Shown piece after piece: positions 41,104 through 41,269 of a DNA stretch of 64,000 bases (position 1 is its first letter; each line of letters begins with the position of its first letter). Both the position numbers and the translations under genes were made by a program. The notes beneath the pieces were generated by a model that saw nothing but the letters and a program-made list of their open reading frames with translations, was not told where the DNA came from and did no database searches. The DNA is from Escherichia coli (GTDB taxonomy: Bacteria > Pseudomonadota > Gammaproteobacteria > Enterobacterales > Enterobacteriaceae), in the NCBI RefSeq assembly GCF_003018255.1, contig NZ_CP027440.1, one strand, 5' to 3'.

Positions 41104-41202
41104 GATGAAATTCGCCACTTGTTAGTGTAATTCGCTAATTCATCCTGGCATGTTGCTGTTGATTCTTCAATCAGATCTTTATAAATCAAAAAGATAAAAA
41201 AT

Positions 41203-41218
41203 TGGCACGCAAATTGTA
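41203..41218 (+). promoter_or_regulatory. sigma-54 (-24/-12) promoter of pspA
   Basis: TGGCACGcaaaTTGTA matches the TGGCAC-N5-TTGC-type consensus, about 50 bp upstream of the pspA ATG. Confidence 0.8.
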
Positions 41219-41269
41219 TTAATAGTTCAGCAGGACAATCCTGAACGCAGAAATCAAGAGGACAACATT

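Follow-up and report, generated by a model that had tools for sequence, protein, structure and literature searches.

The divergent pspF–pspA control region of an Escherichia coli strain: a canonical, coordinate-resolved sigma-54 promoter region

The genes pspF and pspA of Escherichia coli are transcribed away from each other across a single short gap, and the question that this locus raises is whether the gap holds a complete control region of the psp system in the strain at hand, and at which positions its elements lie. We have addressed this question in a window of 64,000 nucleotides (the whole stretch of E. coli DNA that was analysed, from contig NZ_CP027440.1), in which the two genes are divergent and the gap between them, by sequence and open reading frame reading, spans 41104-41269, i.e. 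166 bp. We consider it nearly certain that this interval represents the canonical regulatory region between the divergent pspF and pspA genes of E. coli, and none of our observations contradicts this reading; the control region of this strain is already known and ordinary, and what the finding confirms is that the strain possesses a textbook stress-response switch in intact form. Its practical value lies in a coordinate-resolved map, which includes the two PspF sites, the IHF core, the −24/−12 elements, both start sites, and the pspF promoter that lies over the pspA start codon (Table 1).

The start codon of pspF is the complement of 41101-41103, and the ATG of pspA is located at 41270-41272. 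The PspF protein carries the Pfam domains Sigma54_activat (5e-63), AAA lid and HTH_8, and the GAFTGA loop that characterises the cognate AAA+ enhancer-binding proteins is visible in its sequence; it is identical to K-12 PspF at 323 of 325 residues, with the C-terminal HTH unchanged. All six psp proteins match their own Pfam families, and the order puuE-pspF / pspABCDE-ycjM is annotated alike in K-12 MG1655 and in E. coli strain 104, with which the whole window is colinear. An earlier note, made from the sequence alone, had described a compact, divergent 166-bp interval of standard psp architecture at an intact locus; the coordinates and the gene order agree with the former part of this description, and the six Pfam matches and the near-identity of PspF to its K-12 counterpart agree with the latter.

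Table 1. Positions of the genes and of the mapped or predicted elements of the pspF–pspA control region in the window.
Feature	Position	Strand	Basis or remark
pspF coding sequence	40126..41103	-	open reading frame; 325 aa enhancer-binding activator
Predicted promoter-distal PspF site TGATGAAATTCGCCA	41103..41117		imperfect palindrome, centre 41110 (-119 from pspA start); 13/15 to consensus
Predicted promoter-proximal PspF site TAGTGTAATTCGCTA	41123..41137		centre 41130 (-99); 11/15 to consensus
Poorly conserved spacer (looping arm)	41138..41182		low conservation; holds SNP 41139 and weak pspF sigma-70 hexamers
Predicted IHF core AATCAAAAAGATA	41184..41196	+	12/13 to WATCAANNNNTTR; -45 to -33; runs into A tract 41187-41201
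Sigma-54 pspA promoter TTGGCACGCAAATTGTA	41202..41218	+	sequence identity to K-12 ChIP-seq site; conservation
pspA transcription start (A)	41229	+	K-12 1366062 mapped over; 41-nt leader
Predicted small hairpin CAGGA-CAA-UCCUG	41231..41243	+	centroid structure; +3 to +15 of pspA leader
pspA Shine-Dalgarno AAGAGGA	41256..41262	+	conserved block; unpaired in leader fold
pspF sigma-70 promoter	41260..41295	-	start 41260; -10 CATAAT 41272..41267; 17-nt spacer; -35 TCGGCA 41295..41290
pspA coding sequence	41270..41938	+	open reading frame; 222 aa, PspA/IM30 family (Pfam)

Our comparison of the interval across the Enterobacterales is based on 78 loci that encode PspF relatives, from which 79 distinct intergenic sequences have been compared; the sampled genera are Escherichia, Citrobacter, Salmonella, Klebsiella, Enterobacter, Kosakonia, Buttiauxella, Pantoea, Serratia, Rahnella and others. 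The divergent arrangement of pspF and pspA occurs in all 78 related loci, with gaps of 162-233 bp, and the same layout, composed of the PspF pair, the IHF core and the promoter, recurs in the 79 distinct sequences. The footprint obtained with MAFFT consists of five conserved blocks (41103-41137, 41183-41203, 41203-41221, 41228-41235 and the Shine-Dalgarno sequence), which coincide with both PspF sites, the IHF core, the −24/−12 elements and the Shine-Dalgarno sequence, and of the variable spacer. Within that spacer, at aligned positions 41159-41167, the non-Escherichia genera mostly share a GGTAAAAT-like block, from which E. coli has diverged.

The sequence TGGCACGcaaaTTGTA is located at 41203-41218, exactly where the earlier note had placed a sigma-54 promoter of pspA, TGGCACGCAAATTGTA, and this placement is borne out by the identity of the sequence to a K-12 sigma-54 site: the promoter 17-mer of the window is the same as that of the ChIP-seq peak OS15 of Bonocora et al. 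2015 (motif TTGGCACGCAAATTGTA, marked as experimentally confirmed, with a predicted start 41 nt from pspA; PMC4591121). The hexamer TGGCAC occupies 41203-41208, with the GG at 41204-41205, i.e. at −25/−24 relative to the start at 41229; at the canonical spacing from this GG, a GT is found at 41216-41217 (−13/−12), the local sequence being TTGT and not TTGC. The −24 element is retained in 79/79 distinct enterobacterial sequences (TGGCAC in 67 and TGGCAT in 12), and TTGTA occurs in 57/79. Table S1 of Kim et al. 2012 (PMC3415461) places the start of pspA transcription in K-12 at 1366062(+), on the strength of 18 reads, and gives its UTR as 41 nt; the 50 nt upstream of the K-12 start show a single difference from the window, the SNP at 41223, and the corresponding position 41229 is also the position that lies 19 bp beyond the centre of the sigma-54 motif. 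Given the identity or near-identity of the sequence, these experimental K-12 anchors should be transferable to the window.

The one expected element that we have not recovered is the GC at −12, which the earlier note had listed as part of the promoter and which is replaced by the GT. Huvet et al. have described the GT as an unusual but conserved −12 state of the pspA promoter (PMC3041696), and the missing GC is no argument against the sigma-54 class, since in K-12 sigma-54 occupies this very sequence in vivo. The absence of the −24 GG and −12 GC elements had been named beforehand as the observation that should tell against this promoter: the GG is present and the GC is absent, yet the GT is the native state; as the GT is natural here, both among the enterobacterial sequences and at the pspG promoter, this touchstone was mis-specified and would misfire. 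Scans that demand a GC at −12 would miss the promoters of both pspA and pspG. With respect to its class, the element is an enhancer-dependent sigma-54 promoter with an IHF bend, every testable feature of the class having been found except for the consensus −12 GC, the lack of which is a known trait of PspF-dependent promoters.

The PspF sites, for which the earlier note had suggested a motif scan, have been resolved as two predicted 15-bp sites with conserved spacing across the 79 sequences. They are centred on a direct repeat, TGAAATTCGCCACTT / TGTAATTCGCTAATT, with 20-bp spacing, each copy of which is the core of an imperfect 15-bp palindrome, and the first base of the distal site is the first base of the pspF start codon. 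The consensus TGGTGAAATTCACCA, against which the sites are scored, has been derived here from both psp sites and from the site of pspG, AGTCAAATTCACCAC, and the motif carries no significance by itself in the window. In all 79 sequences the distal site matches the consensus at 12-14 of 15 positions, and its centre lies 7 nt upstream of the pspF ATG in 77/79; the two best sites are exactly 20 bp apart in 73/79, and the centre of the proximal site precedes TGGCA by 73 nt in 63/79. The predicted pair is located upstream of PpspA and is shared with the pspF leader, as in the known arrangement, and we take it to be the classical UAS pair. The published PspF footprint extends from about −126 to −80, which fits 41103-41149; together with the conservation, this suggests that the predicted sites probably correspond to UAS I/II and to the IHF footprint of the literature.

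Both PspF sites are bracketed by a 12-nt inverted repeat (92% complementary; 41098-41109 / 41139-41150), one arm of which, 41098-41109, covers the pspF start codon. We have rejected this repeat as a general feature of the region, since it occurs only in Escherichia sequences and is absent from the other genera.

Directly ahead of TGGCACGCAAATTGTA, the stretch 41183-41202 (AAATCAAAAAGATAAAAAAT) is A-rich, and had been considered as suited to bending by IHF; the IHF motif scan that we have run accords with this view, as it returns a predicted core with an A/T-rich flank, lying between the enhancer and the promoter. The core is conserved with at most one mismatch in 68/79 sequences and its position is fixed: it starts 19 nt before TGGCA in 71/79 sequences, as it does in the window, and 18 nt before it in the other 8. 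The frequency of IHF-like cores is by itself near chance, with 72 in the window vs 54 expected.

IHF-assisted PspF binding, activation, and IHF-dependent autorepression have been reported at the shared region (PMC3709507, PMC7229158). In the mechanism that the literature describes for this system, the sigma-54 RNA polymerase would be parked as a closed complex on TTGGCACGCAAATTGTA, and PspF, which is made constitutively from the adjoining gene, would occupy the two dyad-like 15-bp sites, two helical turns apart (41110, 41130); IHF, bound to the AATCAAAAAGATA core, would bend the DNA in such a way that the enhancer-bound PspF contacts the closed complex and opens it by ATP hydrolysis, leading to the transcription of pspABCDE from 41229. 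Without stress, PspA inhibits PspF. The same PspF/IHF complex would lie downstream of the pspF start at 41260 (additional weak sigma-70 promoters of pspF have been reported in the literature), where PspF would repress its own gene: if pspF starts at 41260, its 157-nt leader takes in the two PspF sites, the IHF site and the site of the sigma-54 complex, and a roadblock mode of autorepression is plausible. The positions of the elements, the sequence identity and the conservation come from the present analysis, and the protein binding, the looping and the autorepression come from the literature.

The promoter of pspF, which the earlier note had assigned to the interval, is only in part contained there: the start, 41260, lies inside, and the −10/−35 hexamers run into the coding sequence of pspA. 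In the genome-wide K-12 set of Kim et al. 2012 (Table S1; PMC3415461), it corresponds to 1366093(-), the sole pspF start listed, for which 6 reads and a UTR of 157 nt are given, and the 50 nt upstream of it are identical in the window. The embedded promoter has been found by a promoter scan, of which it is the only sigma-70-like site, and by our own PWM scan: TCGGCA-17-CATAAT matches at 9/12 positions, with a spacer within the 16-18 nt of sigma-70 promoters, and ends 7 nt before 41260. On the opposite strand, its −10 hexamer reads as the ATTATG of the pspA start codon, and its −35 hexamer is located in pspA codons 7-9.

Three pspF promoters have been reported in the literature (PMC3041696). 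The sigma-70 PWM scan did not place the other two, as the candidates in the gap are not clearly above background: TTGATT-16-AAGAAT scores 8.8 and TTGAAG-17-CAGGAT scores 7.4, against a window-wide background in which the best score per 236 bp has its median at 7.4 and its 90th percentile at 9.6, and both have been rejected. A minus-strand sigma-70 candidate with its −10 hexamer ending near 41137 recurs in 40/79 other sequences and is degenerate in E. coli. The Cappable-seq supplement holds no start-site entries for the region, and among start-site rows of K. pneumoniae we have found none for pspF or pspA.

From the mapped K-12 starts, at 41229(+) and 41260(-), it follows that the transcripts of pspA and pspF would overlap head-to-head by 32 nt (41229-41260), and this geometry raises a reading that goes beyond the textbook model, namely that the 41260 promoter and the 41229 sigma-54 promoter converge, with induced pspA transcription or the parked closed complex hindering pspF, and with a 32-nt antisense pair. 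We regard such interference as rather unlikely. It would be in line with the conservation of the embedded promoter: CATAAT is kept in 60/70 and TCGGCA in 59/70 distinct sequences (about 85% for both hexamers), the non-coding ATT that leads into the pspA ATG (41267-41269) shows a conservation of at least 91% next to the variable positions 41263-41266, and pspA codons 2-14 (41273-41311) are nearly invariant synonymously across the 79 sequences (for example GGT 78/79, TCT 78/79 and GCC 74/78), the codon entropy averaging 0.27 bits over codons 2-10 vs 0.96 bits over codons 11-80, and the later pspA codons for the same amino acids varying freely. This conservation fits a real element; the hexamers, however, overlap the conserved start codon and the N-terminal codons, and constraints of translation initiation could also explain it. 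Moreover, the pspF start amounts to 6 reads in one data set, and PspF levels are reported to be constant under stress (PMC3709507, PMC7229158), which speaks against strong interference. The fold of the 157-nt pspF leader is not significant (z −0.89). That the pspF promoter overlaps the pspA start in a conserved manner would matter only if a coupling of both genes were shown.

The leader of pspA itself carries a predicted hairpin, which in the predicted fold leaves both the Shine-Dalgarno sequence and the AUG unpaired. In 53 of 61 distinct leaders, the fold of the initial 28 nt reaches −4 kcal/mol or better, vs 15 of 74 control segments, the controls being more AT-rich, and the leader folds have a mean z of −1.75 vs shuffles. 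By eye, at least five different stems are seen in the per-sequence folds: CAGGA/UCCUG, GGGC/GCCC, CAGGC/GCCUG, GGUGCC/GGCACC and GGGCG/CGCCC. The E. coli leader fold alone is no better than its shuffles (z 0.15), and RNAalifold, applied to 45 pspA leaders aligned with MAFFT, predicts no pairs, as the stems do not fall into register in the sequences; given these two null results, the hairpin rests only on the per-species folds. We therefore hold the evidence for it to be modest, and its role to be most likely that of a 5'-terminal stabilising stem-loop.

In the literature that we have searched, we have found no description of a pspA leader hairpin; at the gathering threshold, Rfam returns for the whole window only STnc180, far from the psp locus, and a permissive Rfam scan of 40950-42050 returns nothing. 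A pair of CsrA-type GGA sites, suggested by the two occurrences of AGGACAA in the leader, has been rejected, the upstream GGA being not conserved outside Escherichia. It is conceivable that the embedded pspF promoter, the 32-nt overlap and the co-varying leader hairpin together constitute a conserved, undescribed coupling of pspA induction to pspF expression or to pspA mRNA stability, and we give this idea little credence; if it were true, its footprint would be the nearly complete lack of synonymous variation between genera in pspA codons 2-14.

The alignment with the K-12 psp regulatory region, also suggested in the earlier note, leaves the core elements the same: 164/166 bases of the interval are identical (98.8%), and of the two differences, at 41139 and 41223 (each T here and C in K-12), neither falls in a 15-bp PspF site, in the IHF core or in the −24/−12 elements. 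The window thus has in common with K-12 the order of the genes, the gap length of 166 bp and all core elements. A 366-base query (41004-41369) has matches in 5421/5426 complete E. coli genomes, in 5415 of them over at least 80% of the query, and identity of at least 99% over the 366 bp is found in 179/5421 genomes only. Of the 5425 places that match this query, 6 sit on records labelled as plasmids. The psp neighbourhood (37691-43692) is 96.9% identical to K-12 vs 98.8% for the control region, a mild excess of conservation that is not statistically strong.

It is very unlikely that the two T alleles, at −90 and −6 with respect to the pspA start, alter the level of psp or pspF expression in this lineage within a standard architecture. 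Such an effect could be sought in their positions, as they are the sole differences in the interval: 41139 adjoins the proximal PspF site and is within a weak minus-strand −10-like hexamer, which the T changes, as read from the sequence, from ATGAGT to ATGAAT on the pspF strand, and 41223 is located between the −12 element and the start site; the small number of genomes with closely matching 366-bp regions points the same way. Against it, no core element is touched, both alleles are common standing variants in E. coli (exact 60-mers around the variants at 41139 and 41223 occur in 1520 and 659 genomes, respectively), in other genera T prevails at 41139 (~60%), and position 41223 is poorly conserved. 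We infer that the two SNPs are without functional effect.

With the consensus TGGCACGNNNNTTGCW and at most one mismatch, the sigma-54 motif has 2 matches in the window vs 1.25 expected, and 35/100 shuffles reach 2; since the frequency of the motif is at chance, the case for the pspA promoter rests on its context, i.e. on the ChIP identity, the mapped K-12 start and the conservation in 79/79 sequences. That TGGCAC...TTGTA is a chance resemblance and pspA is driven from another promoter, as this frequency and the non-consensus GT might suggest, has a practically negligible probability, being refuted by the published K-12 data on the identical sequence, with the mapped start at the expected 11 nt downstream, the promoter conserved throughout, and no plus-strand sigma-70 candidate scoring above the window-wide median background. 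The second sigma-54-like motif of the window, TGGCACGGCGTTTGCG at 26536-26551 (+), has been rejected as a promoter candidate, as it is missing from the published sigma-54 ChIP tables and such motifs are no more frequent than expected by chance; it sits inside the sap operon, antisense to it.

The pspA promoter, read as a genuine sigma-54 promoter, is close to the second PspF-dependent promoter, that of pspG (sigma-54 motif TTGGCATGATTCTTGTA; PMC4591121). The pspG promoter has TTGGCAT...TTGTA and, like that of pspA, a GT at −12 and an IHF core just upstream of the −24 element; its PspF site, AGTCAAATTCACCAC, is similar to the distal site of pspA and has the PspF half-site in common with it. The IHF core of pspG, AATCAATAGATTA, is perfect and lies 17 nt before TGGCA, i.e. 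2 nt closer than in pspA. It differs from pspA in having one PspF site instead of two (PMC3709507), and in lacking a divergent regulator gene. The generic sigma-54/IHF promoters (glnHp2, nifH, hrpL) present the same order of activator sites, IHF site and −24/−12 elements, and an AAA+ activator with GAFTGA. Unlike these systems, PspF lacks an N-terminal sensory domain and is instead under the control of PspA binding, the −12 element is a GT, and the psp enhancer doubles as the operator for the autorepression of the divergent activator gene.

Some further observations concern other parts of the window. The Rfam match to the enterobacterial sRNA STnc180 is located at 1589-1791 (+), with 202.7 bits and at full length. 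From sapF to fabI (~17600-25100), a TetR-family regulator, the adaptor, permease and outer-membrane subunit of an RND efflux system, and an MFS transporter are recognised by colinearity with strain 104. Between puuE and the 3' end of pspF (40020-40115), there are two REP-like palindromic elements, of the GCCTGATGCGCT...CAGGC and GCCGGATAAGGCG...CCGGC types. Between pspA and pspB, a GC-rich hairpin without a following T-run is located at 41946-41975, and a start that corresponds to 41947 (8 reads) is assigned to pspB in the K-12 start-site table.
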